Shown piece by piece: positions 1-37,098 of a stretch of 40,037 nt of DNA. The position numbers and the translations under genes were made by a program. Source of the stretch: Escherichia phage vB_EcoP_PHB19. The notes below the pieces were generated by a model, which saw only the letters and a list, made by a program, of their open reading frames with translations, ran no database searches and was not told where the DNA came from. The DNA is taken from sequence record MN481365.1. One strand, written 5' to 3'. Position 1 is the first letter of the stretch. Every line of letters starts with the position of its first letter.

Positions 1-47
1 GTATCTCAGGGAGTGGCTTTTAGGCCGTTGTCCCGTTGACGAGATGA

Positions 48-76
48 ATAGTAACCGGTAGGACTCTTTAAGTCAA
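48..76 (-). promoter_or_regulatory. Early sigma70 promoter A1 (TTGACT, 17-nt spacer, TACTAT)
   Basis: Reverse complement reads ttgacttaaagagtcctaccggttactat; matches the position and sequence of T7 A1 (TTGACTTAAAGTCTAACCTATAGGATACT). Confidence 0.7.
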
Positions 77-130
77 TACTCTTTTTAAATTATTTTGATT
101 AATCTCTTTGGTCCTCTTTAAGTTGGCTTA

Positions 131-153
131 TCTCTCTATAGTGAGTCGTATTA
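131..153 (-). promoter_or_regulatory. T7 RNAP promoter phiOL
   Basis: tctctctatagtgagtcgtatta, one mismatch to the 23-bp consensus; sits next to the left-end repeats as in T7. Confidence 0.85.
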
Positions 154-198
154 AAGACAATGAATAAAGATTATCACTTTATAGGTAACAACAAGGCA

Positions 199-257
199 TC
201 TTTAGGTATGGTCTTTAGGTATGGTCTTTAGGTGTAGTCTTTAGGTGTAGTCTTTAG
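199..257. repeat. Left-end short direct repeats (tctttaggtatgg x2, tctttaggtgtag x2)
   Basis: Tandem 12-13-bp units, the reverse complement of the T7 CCTAAAG-type left-end repeats. Confidence 0.8.
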
Positions 258-349
258 AAGATACTTTAAGATGGGGATTGACTGAATGGGTCTTTAAGTG
301 TAGTCTTTAGGTTGTAGGCGGTAGGAATGACTTTAAGGCTGTAACAGAT

Positions 350-522
350 AGGGACACAGAGAGACACTCAAGGTAAACCCAAAGGGACAACTCAAGGTAA
401 CACTCAAAGGGTCATCCCAACCCTTAGGGAACCCTCAAGGCCAACCGAAGGTTGACTTTAGGTGATTGGCTGGGCTTTAGGAACCCCCTATGGGGGGAAC
501 TTTGGGTCCGTACACTGTGAGA
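350..522. repeat. Terminal repeat (single copy in this permuted contig); genome left end maps to about 522
   Basis: Reverse complement of 505..522 is tctcacagtgtacgg, the T7 genome terminus; about 160-170 bp matches the T7 terminal repeat. Exact boundary cannot be set without a second copy. Confidence 0.7.
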
Positions 523-599
523 TAGTCACTCAGATTTTTATGGTATATTTTAAAGGACCCTCTAGGGACCCCTCAGGCCCTCTCTAAGACCCTCTTTAG

Positions 600-700
600 G
601 CATCACTGATAGGATGGCCTATCTTTAGGTATAGACCTTAGGATAGACCATTAGAGGCTCTTTATGGGTATACCTTAGGACTTGACCCTATAGGGATGAA
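600..700. repeat. Right-end short repeats (ctttagg/cttagg units)
   Basis: Reiterated ctttaggtatagaccttaggatagacc between gene 19.5 and the terminal repeat. Confidence 0.6.
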
Positions 701-761
701 GTGGTGTGATGCAATCATACCGCTGAATCCCTCGGTGAGCCATCAGTCGGTCAGGAAGACC

Positions 762-911
762 CTAATCGCTACAAGTGAGTATAGAGCAAACGGCAGACTC
801 CAGTGAACTGAGGTCTCCAGTAAGAGATGCGTACCCAAGGGCAGCACAAAGTACCACAAGAAATCGGTAGGTGACTCTATGCCGCAGTAGGTTCAACAAT
901 AAGCGGAACAT
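762..911 (-). CDS. 19.5: gp19.5, small protein (49 aa)
   Basis: Hand translation gives MFRLLLNLLRHRVTYRFLVVLCAALGYASLTGDLSSLESAVCSILTCSD with a GGAGGAG Shine-Dalgarno; near-identical to T7 gp19.5. Below the ORF-track size cutoff. Confidence 0.8.
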   Translation of the reverse strand: MFRLLLNLLRHRVTYRFLVVLCAALGYASLTGDLSSLESAVCSILTCSD

Positions 912-1065
912 GAGTCTCCTCCCTTTATGTTGGACTTTAAGTTAAGGTGATATTAATACAATATAATCACCATTCTTAGAGGTCACTTTAGGTACACTAC
1001 TATGCATACTTTATGCACTCTATAAGTATTCATTCAGTATCTATATAGTAACCTTTCGTCCCTCC

Positions 1066-1088
1066 TCTCCCTATAGTGAGTCGTATTA
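1066..1088 (-). promoter_or_regulatory. T7 RNAP promoter phiOR
   Basis: Exact 23-bp consensus tctccctatagtgagtcgtatta downstream of gene 19. Confidence 0.9.
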
Positions 1089-1169
1089 ATTTATCGTGTC
1101 TTTTCAGTAACTTAATGTACTGACCATCCGTGGTCTATAGTGCATCCCTATGCAATCTTACTGCATAAA

Positions 1170-4000: not shown

Positions 4001-7000
4001 TTACTTCATGTAAATAGTGCGGAACTGTTCGTTACCACCAGAAGCCGTCATAGAGATTTTCAAGCCATCGGTAGTTGGACTAACTTTAGTCTTAGTGTCA
4101 CCACTCCAAGTCATAAAGCGATGAGTCATGCTAAACCAACTAATCGGAACGTCGTTATAGGTTACAGTTCCTAGAGATTCAAACCCTTGGGTAACTATTA
4201 GAGTCTGTCCTACGCATTTCTGGGGGACAACAAACTCTACAGACATCTGTTGAGGGTCTGCTAGTACCTTGACGCCTGCACTAATTAGCCCAGTCTCGGA
4301 GTTAACAAAACGACACCCAGTGAAGTTAACTGCGCCGATGAACAGTCTGTTAGCCTCTAAATCTGTCTCCCATTTACCAACAACGGTTACACCGTTAAAC
4401 TTGATGTCTGAGTTGGCGTTGGCGTTGACAGGGTTAGCATTGTTAGTCCCTACCTTACCACCAGTGATGCTGATAGACATGGGCTGTTCAGACCAACCAC
4501 CTGAGTAGGTATCAAGTTGTGATAACTCGGAGTTTGTTACCTCAAAGCGACCACGATGGGCAATCTCAAGGTGAGCACCCTGCATTCCACCACCACGAGC
4601 CTGTAGGTTATCAATATATACTAATGGGTTGTGCGTATCACCCCGACCCACGATGGACACAGTGTCAGTTCGGCAGTTAGTCAATCGGAACTGGGGGTAC
4701 GTCTGGTCTGTATACTTGTTTCCTGTAGGACTAGTGTTGACGGCCTTAAACTGACTCATGTCGATAGTTAGTGCAGCGCCAGTCTCACCAGTGTCCCAAT
4801 TGTTAACGTTGACAATCATGGGGTGCTTGATGGACTTATCGGTAGAGCTAAGCAGTGATGTAGGCGCTGGTGGATAAAGTCCACGCTCAAAGGTTACACC
4901 ATCAATGTCTACCTTACGAAAGAACGTGAAGTTAACTGGGGACCCAGCGATCGCGCCTTGAGTAGCATTCGGTACACACTCTAAGAATGCTGGAATTGTG
5001 ATACCAGCACGGCCGTTGACTGTGCAGTTCTTTATGTAGAGGTTTCCATCACACCAACCACCAGCGTCACTACGAGAGCGCACAAAGCCAGAAGCATTGA
5101 ACGCATCCCGTTGTAACCAAGTGCTATTAGTGATGTACAGGTCTCCCATAATGGTTACTAGTACACCCCAATTACCAATCACACAGTTATCAATCTTCAA
5201 CCACTCACGAGCAGGCTGGTGGAAGTCAATACGAGATAACTGAGAGTTCTTGAAGGTTACACGTTGTGAGTTATTGGAACCTGTGGAACCCCAACCATAA
5301 CCATCAGATGTGAGGCCATCAATGGTAACGTCGAAGCTGTTCTCAATGGACAGAGAGTATGTGTACGTATCATCAGTGGTGGCATTCACGTCAGAGCAGT
5401 TAACGTTCTCGACACGAATGTACGCTGAGTTACTCACAATGAGTCTGGTCATGTTGATAGGCTTGTATGCCCCACGGTTGAAGTAAGAGATGTTTTTAAT
5501 AACCACGTTGGTAGCATCTTGCACAACTAACAGCCCAACCTTGGTATAATCAGACTCATCGAACGTGATACCCTTAACTTCAAGCCACTGTGCTGTAATA
5601 TACAAACGACGCAGCTTTGTCACTTTCACACCACTAAGAGAGTAATACAGTGGTGCCGCTAACTGACCATCTTTAAATACACGGTTGAACTCATCACGAT
5701 AGCGAGGTTCGCCACGATATTTAAATAGAGGCTGAGTGGTTTCATACTGGATAAAGCTATCATCCATTTCCATGAAGTCTTTCCACCCTGAGAACATTGT
5801 TGAGCCGGTTCCTACGTTAGTTGATAGGCCCAACTTCTGAATAGGAGCATCTGTAGAGGTGAACTCCATCCACTGATGGTCGCGCTTAATGTATACAAAG
5901 CCATTCCACTTAGAAGGCCACAAGGTCGCACCAGACAGGTCGGTGTTAACCTTAATCTCAATATCCCCATTACCAGATAATTTGAAACGACCCGTGGTCT
6001 GACGAACACTAACCTTAAGACGACTAGCGGCATTGAAGCAATTCATGATCTGAGCCAGTGAGTTAGAGTTAGCTGTACGGTCTGCGCCAAACATATCAAA
6101 TGTTAGTTCAGTTTCTACGTAGCGTTCCCAAACACCACCACCAGAAGCAGCAATACGACTACCACCATCGTCCGCCTCAGTGCTCTCTTTGTTTAACACG
6201 AAGATGCCACCACCAACGTTCAGACCCTTGTAGTAGGAATCTACGTATACGTGAGTGTTGTTTGGGGCATAATCTAGTTCTCGCAGGGATGCGATAGAAT
6301 CAACGTGAGTAAGCACATTGTTTACACGGTTAGCAGCTTCTTCTGCCCTATCAGCGTTGGCGCGCGTGCTTTCATCAAGGTCTCGGAGTTCCGGCATAGT
6401 AGCGTTAATCATAGATACTGCCTCGTTAGAGACACGTTCTGATTCGGCAGCGTTTTCCTCAGAGACCTTGGCAGCATCTGCATATTCCTTTGCTTTCAGT
6501 TCAGCCTTCTTAGCCCCATCCTGTGATACTTTAGCAGCGCCCTCAGATTCCACAGCATTCTGTGCGGCCAGTTCCGCACGTTCAGCAGAGTGTAATGCAG
6601 AGTTGTCCCACGAACGAACTTGACGCATAGTGACGGCATCTCCAACATCCACACCATCAGCTAGGTTCACAATACGACGACCACGGGCATCCAAGTGACC
6701 ATCATTGTTGACACCAATAGTATCAGCAGTTAAGTCACGTGCCTCTTCTGCCACATGCATAGTCTGAATCTGAGCCACGTTAAGGTCGTACGCACGGAGG
6801 ATTGAACCATCCGTAAAGTCAACCAGACGGTCAGTCGTGGAGGTTACTCGGCGTAGCTCAATAGTAGTGTAACCGTCCGCAGGACCCCAAGATTTGGTTA
6901 GCGAGATAGTAGTACGCGTAGCAAAGCGATAATCTGTATTGAGTGTGAGGACCTTACGGTCAACACCAATGAGAGTTACCACTACAAACTTACGGGCTAG

Positions 7001-11128: not shown

Positions 11129-13372
11129 TTACTCCTTACGTCCATAGATGAACTTAGGAACCTGTTTACGTTTATCCCGTACTCGCTTAGCTCCAGCTTC
11201 ACGGGCCTTAGTAGCAGCAGTGATAGGTGCTCGCTTGTTGGCATCCTTCAATGCCTTCTCGCGTGCTTTCTCTTCAAGTTTCTTCTGGTTCTCACTCCAG
11301 ACCTTAGCGAGCAGCTCTTTGTCATACCGTATTCGCACTTGACCAGTGGTGTCCATAAGGTAAATGGAATCACCTTGAGAATACATGGTTAGTTGCTTAT
11401 TGGTAATCCACTTGTTGTTCGCTATGATTCCTTTACGGGCTTCCTCCAGAATATCCCGACCTTGCTCCCATGATTTCGGGTCAGAGTTGACTTGCATCAT
11501 GTTCTTCGGAATCACACCAATGGTATCACCATCAACATCATCACCAGTGAACGTGTAGGTAGATTCCTTAAGGAACTTGGTCATCTGCTCCATAGCCATA
11601 CTTTCGTTCCCTGAGCGGTACTTAACGGAGTCATAAATCTTACGTGCAGATTCACGAAGTGACGCTGGCATACGGGCAATCTCAGGAGCCGTAGAGCTAT
11701 TCAATGCAGACTCGAATGCTTTATCGTCCTCGAATCGTTGCTCTTTAGAACGCTTGGCAGTCAGTCGGTCAGCGTCAAGAATAACCTGAGGGTCAATACC
11801 CTGCTTGTCCATCATGTCCATCGTCAGGAATAGCTCAGCTTGGTCTGGATATAACGCAGCAATCAACTGAGGGTCGGCATTACGGATTCTACGTAGAGCA
11901 TCCAGAGCTGGGGTTCGTTCTGGCAACTTGCCGTTAATCACAGCGGCAGACCACTCTTGACCAGCGTCAGTCACCATAGTTCCGATTGCTGTACGGAATG
12001 CCCCGTCCTTAGAGTCCGCTTGAAGGTATTTCAACTTCATCATGTCCTTGGCGCTATCTGGGATGTCCATGCGGTCAATCTCCGCGAGCTTCTTATTGGC
12101 GTAGTTAACCATATCGCTATGTTTGAACTCACCAGTGTTCTCGTTTGTTGGCATGTCCTTGAAGTCCGTTGAGACCCACTCACCGTTGATTCGCTTCTGG
12201 AACTGCTTGTCGATTACGTCAAGTTTGTTCATAGACTTCATTGAGTCATCCAGAGCTTTGGCTTGAGCCTTCGTCCATGCGTTCATCTGATTCTGAACTT
12301 GTTCCTGTGCCGAGATTAGCCACTCGCGTTGCGGTGTCATCTGCTCATCAGGTTGAACCTTATCGAGTTCAGCCTTGATACCTTGAAGCATCTCCCACGC
12401 AGTACGAGGGTCCTCTTGGTTCAGCGCAGAGTTAATCTTCAAGCGATACTGCTCGTTCAGCTTAGAGTCATTCTCAAATTGAGAACGTTGTGCTGTTACC
12501 ATAAGAGCATTCCATTGTTCTTCACCCATCAACTCTCGGTAAGTTGTCGTGGCTCCGTTAAGTGTTACCTTCTTGTCACCGACTCGCATCAGGAAGTCAG
12601 CACCACCAGCACGGCTAGAAGCGTCACTGAACGCTTGGCTTATAAGCTGTGTGGCTTGAGCATCAGATGGGATTGCCCCAGTAACCAGACCATTGTCGAT
12701 GTACTTCTCAAAGAAGTCAGCAGAGTCTGGGCGGCGAAGCATATCAGGGTCTTGAAGGACACCGTTGAGTTCCACTCGGCTGTTCATGATGGCACCCTTC
12801 TGAGCTTGCTGGCTCAAGAAGTTATCATGTGCGCCATACAGCGAGATGTTACGCTCAGTGATGTCCCCGTTGAAACCCCGCTGATAATCAACGTCCTCAG
12901 GGTCAATACCGAACTGCTCAGCGTATGCCTTAGCGCCCTCTTGAAGACGACTATGGCGATACTGCTCCATCTCTTCACGAGTACGGAAGACACCTTCTTT
13001 GACCTTCTGCATAACATCATCGTCCACAAGGTACGCAGCGTTACGCCCAGTCTTTACCCGCAGTGCTTCCATAGCGTATGGGTCATCCTGATACAGAAGG
13101 GTCCCGTTGTTGAGAGCCTCTCGGCGTTGCTCAGGGGTCAACTTACGGATAATCTCGTTAGAGCGTTCATCAGCTAGGTCACGCGCTCGTTGTTCCTTAG
13201 CGGTATACATATCGGCTCCAGCCTGAGCGAACCGACCAATGGTGTCCAAAAGGCTGGACTTAGGTTGCTCAGCTTGAGTGGTGGCTGCACGATATCCCAT
13301 ACCACCAGCACCGCTACGTAACCGAGAGAGTCCCGGTTGTGCCGCTTGAAGGGCAGATTCAATCTTACTCAT
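11129..13372 (-). CDS. 15: Internal virion protein C
   Basis: 747 aa, same length and order as T7 gp15. Confidence 0.95.
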   Translation of the reverse strand: MSKIESALQAAQPGLSRLRSGAGGMGYRAATTQAEQPKSSLLDTIGRFAQAGADMYTAKEQRARDLADERSNEIIRKLTPEQRREALNNGTLLYQDDPYAMEALRVKTGRNAAYLVDDDVMQKVKEGVFRTREEMEQYRHSRLQEGAKAYAEQFGIDPEDVDYQRGFNGDITERNISLYGAHDNFLSQQAQKGAIMNSRVELNGVLQDPDMLRRPDSADFFEKYIDNGLVTGAIPSDAQATQLISQAFSDASSRAGGADFLMRVGDKKVTLNGATTTYRELMGEEQWNALMVTAQRSQFENDSKLNEQYRLKINSALNQEDPRTAWEMLQGIKAELDKVQPDEQMTPQREWLISAQEQVQNQMNAWTKAQAKALDDSMKSMNKLDVIDKQFQKRINGEWVSTDFKDMPTNENTGEFKHSDMVNYANKKLAEIDRMDIPDSAKDMMKLKYLQADSKDGAFRTAIGTMVTDAGQEWSAAVINGKLPERTPALDALRRIRNADPQLIAALYPDQAELFLTMDMMDKQGIDPQVILDADRLTAKRSKEQRFEDDKAFESALNSSTAPEIARMPASLRESARKIYDSVKYRSGNESMAMEQMTKFLKESTYTFTGDDVDGDTIGVIPKNMMQVNSDPKSWEQGRDILEEARKGIIANNKWITNKQLTMYSQGDSIYLMDTTGQVRIRYDKELLAKVWSENQKKLEEKAREKALKDANKRAPITAATKAREAGAKRVRDKRKQVPKFIYGRKE

Positions 13373-13378
13373 AGTTCA

Positions 13379-13969
13379 TTACCTCCCCGTCTTGGTTCCT
13401 TTAGCGGCAACAATAGGTGCCTTAGTTGTGGACTTAGAGTCGAACTTACCGTCTGCGTAAGCACTCGCAGCGGAAGACCCCATGATAGCCAGTGGGTCCA
13501 GAACCATCTGTAGCTTGCTCTTCTGTTTCTGTTCGCCCCTGTAGATTTCATCAATCTGACTTGCAGCACTTTGAGTGCCACCAAGTTGCTGTGCGAAGAT
13601 TGCTTGGTAGTCTCTACGGTAGTTATCAGTGACCATGTTGGCCTCCCGAATGAACTGGCCCTCAGTGACTCGCTTAATGCGGTCCATTGAGGAACCCTCC
13701 AACATACTCTCGCCTATAGCCGCTCGGATAGACCCCATAGCTTGTACCTTCTGCATGTTCTGTGAGGTCAACTCAGCGGACGCTTCCTCAAGTTTACTTC
13801 GAGCTTGCAACGATAGGTCAGCATTCTGGATGTTCGTCTGCTTCATAAGTTCAAAGGCTTGACGACGACCAGCGGCGGTCTGTGACGCTATCATTTTAGC
13901 TTGAGCGTTCTGACTACCGATAGCCTGAGCGCCAGCTATTGCGATTGGAATTGCAGCTGCCCAGCACAT
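13379..13969 (-). CDS. 14: Internal virion protein B
   Basis: 196 aa, T7 gp14 length and position. Confidence 0.93.
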   Translation of the reverse strand: MCWAAAIPIAIAGAQAIGSQNAQAKMIASQTAAGRRQAFELMKQTNIQNADLSLQARSKLEEASAELTSQNMQKVQAMGSIRAAIGESMLEGSSMDRIKRVTEGQFIREANMVTDNYRRDYQAIFAQQLGGTQSAASQIDEIYRGEQKQKSKLQMVLDPLAIMGSSAASAYADGKFDSKSTTKAPIVAAKGTKTGR

Positions 13970-26808: not shown

Positions 26809-27225
26809 TTACTTACCTGTAAATGCACGAACGATTTCATTATATGGGACAACTCTCAGTTGATCAGCCTGATACATCTTAGACGACTCTTGTGCTATAA
26901 CGCAGTCAAAGACTATGCGTTCTATAAACGACACTTGTGCTAGGTGGCCTCTTACACTTCGCACGTAACCATATCCACCCACGACTCCCGTGTCAACCTT
27001 AACCCAATCACCAGCCTTGATGTGTGTCATAGTGTCCTTATCGAACACCTTGTGGCTCAGCTTGTAAGATTCCGGCTTCTTCCAGCCAGTCTGTCGAGTC
27101 CAAGTCCACCCTAAGTTCTTCAAAATGTGAACAGCGGAGCGAGTCTTGGCTTCATGGCACTTAACGTCCTCAAGTTCAGCTTCAAGTTTAGCGATTTCTG
27201 CTTGGATAATTTTAGGGTCACGCAT
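26809..27225 (-). CDS. 4.7: gp4.7
   Basis: Internal start MRDPKIIQAEIAKLEAELEDVK..., matches T7 gp4.7; the track ORF reads through the promoter. Confidence 0.85.
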   Translation of the reverse strand: MRDPKIIQAEIAKLEAELEDVKCHEAKTRSAVHILKNLGWTWTRQTGWKKPESYKLSHKVFDKDTMTHIKAGDWVKVDTGVVGGYGYVRSVRGHLAQVSFIERIVFDCVIAQESSKMYQADQLRVVPYNEIVRAFTGK

Positions 27226-27232
27226 GATAATA

Positions 27233-27258
27233 TCTCCTATAGTGAGTCGAATAGTATT
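27233..27258 (-). promoter_or_regulatory. T7 RNAP promoter phi4.7 (variant upstream half)
   Basis: Coding strand taatactattcgactcactataggagat: the -12 to +1 core is conserved, the -17 to -13 AT-recognition region differs from consensus. Confidence 0.7.
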
Positions 27259-27298
27259 AATGAAGGCCACCACTTTGGCGACCTTGAGTGTATCACTC
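27258..27298 (-). promoter_or_regulatory. RNase III site R4.7
   Basis: atgaaggccaccactttggcgaccttgagtg, conserved RNase III hairpin motif. Confidence 0.55.
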
Positions 27299-27568
27299 TT
27301 AACTATCAATCTTGTCGAGGATAGCCATAGCTTCATCAACGCGACCAGCCTCATGAATTGCGGTCACGGCAGCTTTGGTAAGCGCATTGACCAGACGCAG
27401 TGCTTGCTCGTCCGTCAACGTCATACGCTGAGTGTGATTCTTAGAGGACTTAGAGTCCTTCCAACGGTAAACCATAGTAGCCTTTCCGTTACGAACGTTG
27501 ATGTGAACTCGACGGTTCCACTGGTCGGCGGTATCGGATAGACGGATAGTTTCAGCTACTTGTGTCAT
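27299..27568 (-). CDS. 4.5: gp4.5
   Basis: Internal start MTQVAETIRLSDTADQWNRRVHINV...; 89 aa, near-identical to T7 gp4.5. Confidence 0.9.
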   Translation of the reverse strand: MTQVAETIRLSDTADQWNRRVHINVRNGKATMVYRWKDSKSSKNHTQRMTLTDEQALRLVNALTKAAVTAIHEAGRVDEAMAILDKIDS

Positions 27569-27587
27569 GATAGTTTCTCCTGTTTGA

Positions 27588-32704: not shown

Positions 32705-32726
32705 TCTCCTATAATGAGTCGTATTA
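32705..32726 (-). promoter_or_regulatory. T7 RNAP promoter phi1.5
   Basis: tctcctataatgagtcgtatta, one mismatch to consensus. Confidence 0.8.
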
Positions 32727-34446: not shown

Positions 34447-37098
34447 TCACGCAAACGCGAAGTCTGACTCTAAGATGTCTCGTAAATTCAAGTTACCTTT
34501 AGCCGGAAGTGCTGGCATTTTATCCAGTTGAGACTCATGTAACTGGTCCGCGAACTGGTTGTAGAAGTCTGCAAGCACATCGCAGGACTCGTAGGTGTCA
34601 ACCATCGTTTCACGAACAGCTTTGAAGAGGTTGGCAGCGTCAGCCGGAATGGTCCCGAAGGAGTCATGAATCAGTGCGAAAGATTCGATTCCGTACTTCT
34701 CATGCGCCCACACTACAGTCTTACGTAGGTGGCTACCGTCTTGGCTGTGTACAAAGTTAGGAGCGATACCAGACTCCTGCTTATGGGCATCAATCTCGCT
34801 GTCCTTGTTGGTGTTGATGGTCGGCTGTAAGCGGAACTGACCGAGGAACATCAAGTTCAAGCGAGTCTGAATTGGCTTCTTGTATTCTTGCCACACAGGG
34901 AAGCCATCAGGAGTTACCCAATACACCGCGCAACGCTTGCGAAGAATCTCACCAGTCTTCTTATCTTTGACCTCAGCAGCCAACAACTTAGCGGCAGACT
35001 TGAGCCAGTTCATGGCCTCTACAGCAGCCACTACGGTAACGCTCACTGATTCCCAAATCAGCTTAGCCATATACCCAGCAGCCTGATTGGGTTGCGTGAA
35101 CATCAGACCCTTACCGGAATCAATAGCTGGCTGTATGGTATCCTCAAGAACTTGCTGGCGGAATCCGAACTCTTTGGAACCATACGCCAGCGTCATTACT
35201 GAACGCTTAGTGACGCTACGAGTAACACCGTATGCCAGCCATTGACCAGCCAGCGCTTTAGTGCCCAGCTTGACTTTCTCAGAGATTTCGCCAGTGTTCT
35301 CGTCGGTCACGGTAACTACTTCGTTGTCTGTCCCGTTGATTACATCAGATTGCAGAATCTCGTTGACTTTCTTAGCGACAATCCCGTAGATGTCCTGAAC
35401 GGTTTCACTAGGTAGCAGGTTAACAGCACGACCACCCACCTCATCGCGGAGCATTGCGGAGAAGTGCTGGATACCGGAGCAAGACCCATCGAACGCCAGT
35501 GGCAGCGAGCAGTTGTAGCTCAGGCCGTGGTGCTGTACCCCAGCGTACTCAAAGCAGAACGCGAGGAAACAGAACGGAGAATCTTGCTCAGCCCACCAAG
35601 TGTTCTCCAGCGGAGACTTGGCGCAAGCCATGATGTTCTCGTGGTTATCCTCGATGAACTTGATGCGCTCAGGGAATGGAACCTTATCAACTCCCGCGCA
35701 GTTAGCACCGTGGATTTTCAGCCAGTAAAATCCTTCCTTGCCGATTGGTTTACCTTTAGCCAGTGTCAGCAGACCTTTTGTCATGTCGTTGCCTTGCGGG
35801 TTGAACATTGACACAGCGTACACACGACCGCGCCAGTCCATGTTGTAAGGGAACCAGATGGCCTTACGGTTAGCGAACTTGTTGGCTTGCTCCAGCATGA
35901 ACTCAAGGCTGATACGGCGAGACTTGCGAGCTTTGTCCTTACGGTACACAGCGGCAGCTGCACGTTTCCAAGCGGTCAGCGCCTCAGGATTCGTGTCGAT
36001 GTCTTCCGGTTTCATCGGGAGTTCTTCACGCTCAATCGAAGGAATGTCTTCTACAGGGCAGTGCTTCCACTTGGTTATCACGTTGGCGACCGCTAGGACT
36101 TTCTTGTTGATTTTCCAAGCGGTGTTTTGCGCAATGTTAATCGCTTTGTACACCTCAGGCATGTAAACATCTTCGTAGCGCATCAGTGCCTTCTTGCTGT
36201 GGGTGCGCACCAGTACCAGCGGACGGCGACCATTAGCCCAGTATCCACCACCAGTTACACCAGTCCAAGGTTTAGGCGGTACTATGCAAGGCTGATACAT
36301 CGGAGAGATACCAGCCAGTGCCCCAGCCCGTGTTGCGATAGCCTCAGCGTATTCGTGTGCCAGTTCGATAGTCTCAGAGTCTTGGCCCACTACGCCAGCA
36401 TTTTGGCGGTGAAGGCTAACCATTCCGGTTGACTCGATGAGCATCTCAATGCAGCGCACCCCTACGTGAATGGAGTCTTCCTTGTGCCATGTAGACCACG
36501 CCTCGCCACCGAGTAGACCCTTAGAGAGCATATCGGCCTCGACTACTTGCATGAATGCTTTCTTGTAGACATGCCCTACGCGCTTGTTTAGTTGTTCCTC
36601 AACGTTTTTCTTGAAGTGCTTAGCTTCTAGGTCACGGATTCGACCGAAGCGAGCTTCTTCCTCGATAGCCCGTCCGATGGCGCTTGCTACAGCCTGAACG
36701 GTTGTATTGTCCACGCTAGTTAGGCAAGCGAGAGTAGTCTTAATGGTAATATACGCTACAGATTCCGGCTTGATTCCTTGCAGGAACTGGAAAGCGGTTG
36801 GACGTTTGCCACGCTTAGCTTTCACTTCATCAAACCAGTCGTTGATGCGTGCAACCATCTTGGGCAGTAGAGTCGTAATCAGAGGTTTAGCAGCTGCATT
36901 GTCTGCAACCTCACCGGCCTTGAGTTGACGCTCAAACATCTTGCGGAAACGTGCTTCACCCATTTCGTAAGACTCATGCTCAAGGGCCAACTGCTCGCGA
37001 GCCAGACGCTCACCATAATGATCAGCCAGAGTGTTGAACGGGATAGCAGCTAGTTCGATGTCAGAGAAATCGTTCTTAGCGATGTTAATCGTGCTCAT
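34447..37098 (-). CDS. 1: Single-subunit DNA-directed RNA polymerase
   Basis: 883 aa, same length as T7 RNAP with only scattered substitutions (from recall). Confidence 0.99.
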   Translation of the reverse strand: MSTINIAKNDFSDIELAAIPFNTLADHYGERLAREQLALEHESYEMGEARFRKMFERQLKAGEVADNAAAKPLITTLLPKMVARINDWFDEVKAKRGKRPTAFQFLQGIKPESVAYITIKTTLACLTSVDNTTVQAVASAIGRAIEEEARFGRIRDLEAKHFKKNVEEQLNKRVGHVYKKAFMQVVEADMLSKGLLGGEAWSTWHKEDSIHVGVRCIEMLIESTGMVSLHRQNAGVVGQDSETIELAHEYAEAIATRAGALAGISPMYQPCIVPPKPWTGVTGGGYWANGRRPLVLVRTHSKKALMRYEDVYMPEVYKAINIAQNTAWKINKKVLAVANVITKWKHCPVEDIPSIEREELPMKPEDIDTNPEALTAWKRAAAAVYRKDKARKSRRISLEFMLEQANKFANRKAIWFPYNMDWRGRVYAVSMFNPQGNDMTKGLLTLAKGKPIGKEGFYWLKIHGANCAGVDKVPFPERIKFIEDNHENIMACAKSPLENTWWAEQDSPFCFLAFCFEYAGVQHHGLSYNCSLPLAFDGSCSGIQHFSAMLRDEVGGRAVNLLPSETVQDIYGIVAKKVNEILQSDVINGTDNEVVTVTDENTGEISEKVKLGTKALAGQWLAYGVTRSVTKRSVMTLAYGSKEFGFRQQVLEDTIQPAIDSGKGLMFTQPNQAAGYMAKLIWESVSVTVVAAVEAMNWLKSAAKLLAAEVKDKKTGEILRKRCAVYWVTPDGFPVWQEYKKPIQTRLNLMFLGQFRLQPTINTNKDSEIDAHKQESGIAPNFVHSQDGSHLRKTVVWAHEKYGIESFALIHDSFGTIPADAANLFKAVRETMVDTYESCDVLADFYNQFADQLHESQLDKMPALPAKGNLNLRDILESDFAFA

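Follow-up and report, generated by a model that had tools for sequence, protein, structure and literature searches.

The site upstream of gene 4.7 in Escherichia phage vB_EcoP_PHB19 (MN481365.1) is, to judge from its sequence, phi4.7, an already catalogued class II promoter of Teseptimavirus (T7-group phage). It is identical to T7 phi4.7, it is conserved across relatives, and in T7 and most relatives its upstream block takes part in a predicted RNA fold supported by covariation. The reading favored here, at a rough probability of 75%, is that phi4.7 is a conserved promoter whose mismatches fall on bases with a further role, as an arm of the stem of the RNase III site R4.7 and as part of a GGAGA pattern. 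The phage's own T7-type RNA polymerase would recognise phi4.7, its specificity loop reading the perfect -12..-1 part, and the transcript would begin at the G at 27237 (+1, minus strand); its first bases, GGAGA, would be the ribosome-binding site of gene 4.7. Positions -20..-12 would be transcribed in read-through RNA from upstream promoters, and in that RNA they would make up the 3' arm of the R4.7 lower stem. This structural overlap is the probable cause of the upstream deviation, and a somewhat weaker phi4.7 would be its consequence. The promoter and its sequence are themselves known, having been part of the T7 reference annotation since publication of the genome. The small added value lies in the dual coding, in which one stretch would act as promoter DNA, as a ribosome-binding site and, in read-through RNA, as an RNase III stem, and which would explain where the mismatches of a "weak" promoter fall. 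The features discussed are listed in Table 1.

Table 1. Features around phi4.7 in the window, i.e., the whole stretch of 40,037 nt that was analysed
Feature	Position	Strand	Basis
Gene 4.7, 138 aa (coordinates include the stop codon)	26809..27225	-	ORF list
phi4.7, class II T7-type promoter, -17..+6, CTATTCGACTCACTATAGGAGAT	27254..27232	-	Direct reading; same as annotated T7 phi4.7
GGAGA at +1..+5, putative Shine-Dalgarno sequence of gene 4.7, followed by a 7-nt spacer and the ATG at 27225..27223	27233..27237	-	Direct reading; Shine-Dalgarno function putative
AUACUAUUC, promoter -20..-12; 3' arm of the R4.7 lower stem in T7-group phages	27249..27257	-	MFE folds, pair counts, JX000007
R4.7 upper stem-loop, AAGGTCGCC-AAAGT-GGTGGCCTT	27285..27263	-	Motif; JX000007 annotation; relatives 100% paired, with 2 compensatory pairs
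R4.7 5' arm, GAGUGAUAC instead of GAGUGGUAU (G>A at 27293, U>C at 27290)	27290..27298	-	Folds, pair probabilities
Gene 4.5 (toxin/antitoxin-system inhibitor Gp4.5), directly upstream	27299..27571	-	PF17574, E = 7e-60; ORF list

Identity of phi4.7 and its departure from consensus

The window is a T7-type phage genome in reverse-strand orientation. The 28-mer taatactattcgactcactataggagat quoted in the first-pass annotation is present on its minus strand at 27259..27232, the interval given there (27233-27258) being one base short at each end. The -12..+2 core of the promoter is the exact 14-mer CGACTCACTATAGG, which occurs at nine sites in the window, all on the minus strand, and at none in 100 shuffles. 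A looser search for the core yields 17 promoter cores, again all on the minus strand, which correspond one-to-one to the 17 annotated phage promoters of T7. The site has both marks of a T7-type promoter, the core CGACTCACTATA at -12..-1 and a G start, and it is located in the middle (DNA-metabolism) region between the primase/helicase and DNA polymerase genes, where a class II promoter belongs. Its earlier identification as phi4.7 is borne out by its position between gene 4.5 (stop codon at 27301..27299), which is recognised by PF17574, and the homologue of gene 4.7, the ATG of which is 12 nt downstream. This placement 5' of gene 4.7 is syntenic with T7, and the region aligns with T7 13822-13937. 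The gp4.7 protein is 75% identical to that of T7, with a divergent C-terminal third, and 89% identical to that of HZ2R8, its closest relative; a search for Pfam families in gp4.7 returned no match.

T7 phi4.7 (class II; V01146/NC_001604, +1 = 13915) is identical at 23 of 23 positions from -17 to +6. It occupies the same place between genes 4.5 and 4.7 at the same distance from the ATG, and it adjoins the same hairpin. The flanks differ, -22 being T here and G in T7, and +11 being T here and C in T7. Of the ten other promoters outside class III (phiOL plus the class II promoters), eight have 1-3 bases that are not the same in the T7 and window copies, and the phage is ~92% identical to its best database relatives over 14 kb. 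The upstream block had been presented as a peculiarity of phi4.7, on the understanding that the same sequence in T7 would make it simply a conserved weak class II promoter. Because T7 phi4.7 does have the same sequence, the oddity is not specific to this phage.

The RNA polymerase encoded in the window (gene 1, 34447..37098, minus strand) is 98% identical to that of T7, and both its AT-rich recognition loop (93-101, KAKRGKRPT) and its specificity loop (739-770, including N748, R756 and Q758) are those of T7. Since both recognition loops are unchanged, there is no reason to expect different promoter recognition. A polymerase-dependent start at +1 of phi4.7 is putative and is read from the sequence, which is that of the promoter annotated in the T7 record V01146.

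Compared with the consensus TAATACGACTCACTATAGGGAGA, phi4.7 has seven mismatches (C at -17, T at -16, T at -13, and +3..+6) and matches at 16 of the 23 positions. A leave-one-out weight matrix derived from the promoters of the window places phi4.7 last of the 17, with 21.9 bits, compared with 39.1 bits for the perfect sites, which are phiOR and five class III promoters. By block, phi4.7 obtains -2.6 bits over -17..-13, which is the lowest upstream score of all 17 promoters, 21.8 bits over -12..-1, which equals that of the class III promoters, and 2.7 bits over +1..+6. The description of an intact core with a deviant -17..-13 region is thus accurate. On the other hand, the first-pass statement that 16 of the 17 promoters are near-consensus goes too far, since phi4c and phi3.8 also have three upstream mismatches and five of the window's promoters have more than three mismatches to the 23-mer. 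In the window, phi4c (CAATC..., CAATCCGACTCACTAAAG...) has its three mismatches upstream of +1, with an upstream score of 0.8 bits, and phi3.8 begins with TAATTGA... (TAATTGAACTCAC...). T7 phi4c (CAATCCGACTCAC...) and T7 phi3.8 (the same TAATTGAACTCAC...) are class II promoters like phi4.7, and their three upstream mismatches each are conserved between T7 and the window. The mismatches of phi3.8 extend into -12/-11 and those of phi4c include -2, whereas phi4.7 keeps -12..-1 perfect and has its changes concentrated in -17..-13.

Two further promoters of the window differ from their T7 counterparts in the core or at the start. phi2.5 (+1 at window 31768, minus strand) reads TAATACGACTCACTATT followed by GGGGAA, with a G start, and T7 phi2.5 reads ...ATT followed by AGGGAA, with an A start. 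phi1.5 (window 32709..32726, minus strand) has C>T at -5 (ACTCATTATAG) in an otherwise invariant core; T7 has C there and A at -2.

The mismatches at +3..+6 are a matter of the transcript start. A GGAGA followed by an ATG within 4-7 nt is also found at phi1.5, phi1.6 and phi4.3 of the window, and the mismatches of phi4.7 (GGAGAT) follow the pattern common to these three promoters, in which the start of the transcript would itself be the Shine-Dalgarno sequence. In phi4.7, GGAGA at +1..+5 is probably the Shine-Dalgarno sequence of gene 4.7, located at the very start of the transcript.

Overlap of the upstream block with the RNase III site R4.7

The motif AAGGTY...RRCCTT is found in T7 at 1441-1465, 5861-5884, 6421-6445 and 13867-13889, and the same motif marks R0.5, R1.1, R1.3 and R4.7 in the window too. 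Relative to what are presumably the cut sites of R0.5, R1.1, R1.3 and R4.7 (the last presumably at T7 13892), each motif copy ends 3 nt before the cut, all four agreeing. RNase III would cleave ~3 nt 3' of the upper stem of R4.7, as judged from this spacing and from the annotation of Yersinia phage R (JX000007). In that record, R4.7, labelled "RNase III cleavage site", spans 11531-11579 and phi4.7 spans 11575-11597; what they have in common is exactly CTATT (5 nt). In the open-text literature, R4.7 is named as a T7 cleavage site (PMC6938266), but neither a coordinate nor a drawn structure was found there, and RNase III sites are absent from the returned feature tables of the T7 records V01146, NC_001604, PP384393 and AY264774.

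In the fold of T7 13850-13910 (z = -4.8), a 4x5 internal loop separates the lower stem, GAGUGGUAU/AUACUAUUC, from an upper stem of 10 bp, and this shape of two stems with an internal loop is also that of the R1.1 and R0.5 control folds. In the T7 fold, the C at -17 pairs with G, the U at -16 with G, and the U at -13 with A. When CTATT is replaced in silico by TAATA in T7, the pair probability of the lower stem drops from ~0.99 to 0, because A then stands opposite G at -16 and opposite A at -13. For the window, formation of the lower stem was judged by pair probabilities; the energy obtained when its sequence is forced into the T7-like fold includes non-canonical pairs and is unreliable. A long-range helix between the stop region of gene 4.5 and the start of gene 4.7, seen in one 96-nt fold, is not significant (z = -1.6) and was discarded. 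The first-pass annotation had noted the substitutions at -17..-13 but had missed both the overlap with R4.7 and the putative Shine-Dalgarno role of +1..+5.

In the window, R4.7 shares with T7 and JX000007 the upper stem-loop, the 3' half (27285..27249) and the 5-nt overlap with phi4.7. Of the two stems of ~9-10 bp by which such a site is defined, the upper one, with the conserved CUCAAGGUC...GGCCUU, is intact in the window, whereas the lower one, which forms in T7 and most relatives, is predicted to be absent. The 5' arm reads GAGUGGUAU in nearly all relatives, and its changes in the window place A opposite the C at -17 and C opposite the A at -20, by which two of the nine lower-stem pairs are lost. 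The pair probability of the lower stem is ~0.01 in the window versus ~0.99 in T7. The predicted fold contains a local GAGUG-AUA-CACUC hairpin, made by the 5' arm with 27286..27289, and no pairing with the promoter block. R0.5, R1.1 and R1.3 of the window fold as in T7. A change of C to U at -17 in the window is predicted to restore the pairing (probability ~0.8), and it would also bring the promoter nearer to consensus.

The two 5'-arm substitutions that break the predicted lower stem are the only window-specific feature near phi4.7, and they are a minor lead. CTATT is unchanged in the window despite the predicted break. Because the lower stem is predicted not to form, present pairing would not be what maintains CTATT in this phage. 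It is conceivable, although doubtful, that the changes at 27293 and 27290 inactivated or reshaped R4.7 and left the promoter untouched, in which case the 5' ends of gene 4.7 mRNA would come from phi4.7 starts only. CTATT would then lack a pairing partner, as it does in Berlinviruses, which would point to a second, promoter-intrinsic role.

Conservation in relatives and alternative explanations

T7-group relatives were recovered with the gp4.7 protein as the query, with no selection on the promoter. The same upstream block is present in nearly all of them, and it is also found in curated phage records. When the distinct T7-group sequences were folded independently, all adopted the T7 fold except the window and phage 13a, with SalC2, which carries indels, forming a related variant. 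Of the 15 distinct sequences used in the alignment below, 13 gave the fold independently, the exceptions being the window and SalC2. Phage 13a has another non-consensus block (GTAGT) and another predicted lower stem. In a covariation alignment of 15 distinct sequences, 98.5% of the cells are standard pairs, and three compensatory pairs have changed on both sides, a number reached in 0 of 500 shuffles (slid controls gave 0-1). At promoter -17, 12 sequences have G-C, Rambo has A-U and L012 (an IMG/VR phage) has G-U; at -16, 12 have G-U and three have G-C. The CT>TC swap of L012 also converts the neighbouring G-U to G-C. In Rambo (L055), CHRF_10027 (L056) and Vi06 (L057), the core of phi4.7 is deleted or degraded (positions ~180-250), and Vi06 and CHRF_10027 are also without gene 4.7. 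All three retain the R4.7 hairpin, including AUAYYAUU, with compensatory changes in both stems, which favors the overlap. Kvp1 also speaks for the overlap: no hairpin adjoins its 4.7 promoter, which starts with the near-consensus CAATA. In HZ2R8 (L004), HZP2 (L015) and CICC 80001 (L014), phi4.7 is substituted at -11 (G>T, G>A) or -12 (C>A), around locus position 1170, and -20..-13 is unchanged. A metagenome scan for GGTGGCCTT-N16-ACTCACTA returned 27 loci, none with phage context; these are chance matches and are useless for judging conservation.

The overlap with R4.7 might be incidental, CTATT being kept for a promoter-intrinsic reason such as an attenuated or differently regulated contact with the AT-rich loop. 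The block would then tune the output of phi4.7 or its sensitivity to lysozyme. This is rather unlikely, although it would fit the upstream score of phi4.7, which is the lowest of the 17 promoters, and the retention of CTATT in the window, where the stem is predicted to be broken. It would also fit the Berlinvirus-type phages, in which CTATT is retained and the hairpin does not overlap the promoter. About ten of them (FE44, 285P, BSP161, P694 and others), whose promoters have the upstream consensus TAATA or CAATA, have an RNase III-type hairpin that is complete, including a 3' arm of its own, and ~20 nt beyond it tatgaaatCTATTCAACTCACTAATGGGAGA. In Erwinia phage FE44 (KF700371 13362-13384), phi4.7 likewise starts with CTATT and precedes a gene for a gp4.7 homologue, and its flank tatgaaatCTATTC looks homologous to catgaataCTATTC of T7. 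Its -11 is A and its -2/-1 follow the FE44 consensus, unlike in the window, and its RNase III-type hairpin is a separate unit ~20 nt upstream, with no overlap with the promoter. The CTATT of such phages could be left over from an ancestral overlap, or a promoter-intrinsic reason could account for its retention.

Several features of the T7 group argue against a promoter-intrinsic reason. All changes at -17/-16 among these relatives keep the pairing (L012, Rambo and Vi06), and the block survives in phages that have neither the promoter core nor gene 4.7. Moreover, HZ2R8, HZP2 and CICC 80001 tolerate changes at the far more critical -11/-12, a hint that promoter strength is under weak selection. 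There would be little range for tuning, given that AT-rich substitutions at -17..-13 are reportedly tolerated in vitro. The overlap with the R4.7 stem is preferred here as the explanation of the upstream block, but it is an incomplete one in view of the predicted broken stem of the window, the CTATT of Berlinvirus-type phages and the different block of phage 13a.

The Berlinvirus-type hairpin before phi4.7 (L081/L065, FE44 13300-13384; L082-L091) starts with GAGTTAAACT, like the site after FE44 phi1.3, and a 9-nt direct repeat, TGAAATCTA, lies on either side of it in FE44-type genomes. The repeat and the common start might be the trace of a duplication or conversion between RNase III sites.

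A neutral history is less probable still. According to it, -17..-13 matter little, the ancestral phi4.7 happened to carry CTATT, and close kinship mimics conservation. The relatives are indeed mostly 90-95% identical over the phi4.7 region, and the conservation is partly a result of recent common descent, because most of them are >90% identical; there is also variation at -17 and -13 among other class II promoters (phi1.1A, phi4c and phi3.8 of T7). However, the same intergenic stretch varies in the hairpin loop, the internal loop, -12/-11 and +7..+12, whereas the paired positions change only in a pair-preserving manner, three pairs having changed on both sides. In addition, the block is common to two genera whose gp4.7 proteins are only ~45% identical. 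On the whole, the present data lean to pair-preserving over pair-breaking substitutions.

That phi4.7 is no functional promoter in this phage but a decaying relic, with its only live role in the RNA processing site, can hardly be credited: related phages have lost the core or carry -11/-12 substitutions, but this phage has an exact -12..+2 core, the same as in the experimentally defined T7 phi4.7. Its polymerase also has the recognition loops of T7, and what damage there is seems to lie in the RNA stem rather than in the promoter.

The stretch TAATAC-TATT-CGACTC was also considered as a consensus promoter split by a 4-nt insertion. This was rejected, since T7 and most relatives read GAATAC, and in alignments this part falls on the conserved 3' half (...CCUUNAUGAUU...) of other RNase III sites.

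Expected effect on expression of gene 4.7

Positions -17..-13 contact the AT-rich recognition loop of the polymerase, and class II promoters of T7 are generically weaker or differently timed. The first-pass prediction of weaker or differently timed transcription of gene 4.7 agrees with this general property of the class, but it may be overstated as regards the upstream block, CTATT being A/T at four of its five positions. Between its class II promoters and T-phi, T7 is not known to have a terminator for the phage polymerase, so that gene 4.7 would also be expressed from read-through transcripts processed at R4.7. Given such read-through expression, phi4.7 would add to the transcript pool and would not be its only source.

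At -17..-13, AT-richness was found to matter more than the exact sequence in one in vitro study, in which another AT-rich pentamer was about as good as TAATA and a GC-rich one was not (bioRxiv 10.1101/619395). With four of five positions of CTATT being A/T, a modest rather than drastic weakening of phi4.7 is a reasonable expectation. A measured strength of phi4.7 was not found in the searchable literature, and in a simulation all class II promoters were given the same nominal strength (PMC6938266). When T7-like genomes are annotated or refactored, phi4.7 "improved" to consensus is predicted to disrupt R4.7.

phiOR (+1 at 1071) and phiOL (+1 at 136) are both located at the low-coordinate end of the window (1..1100). 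The assembly is permuted relative to T7, so that the physical ends or terminal repeat would lie inside the window and not at its edges.
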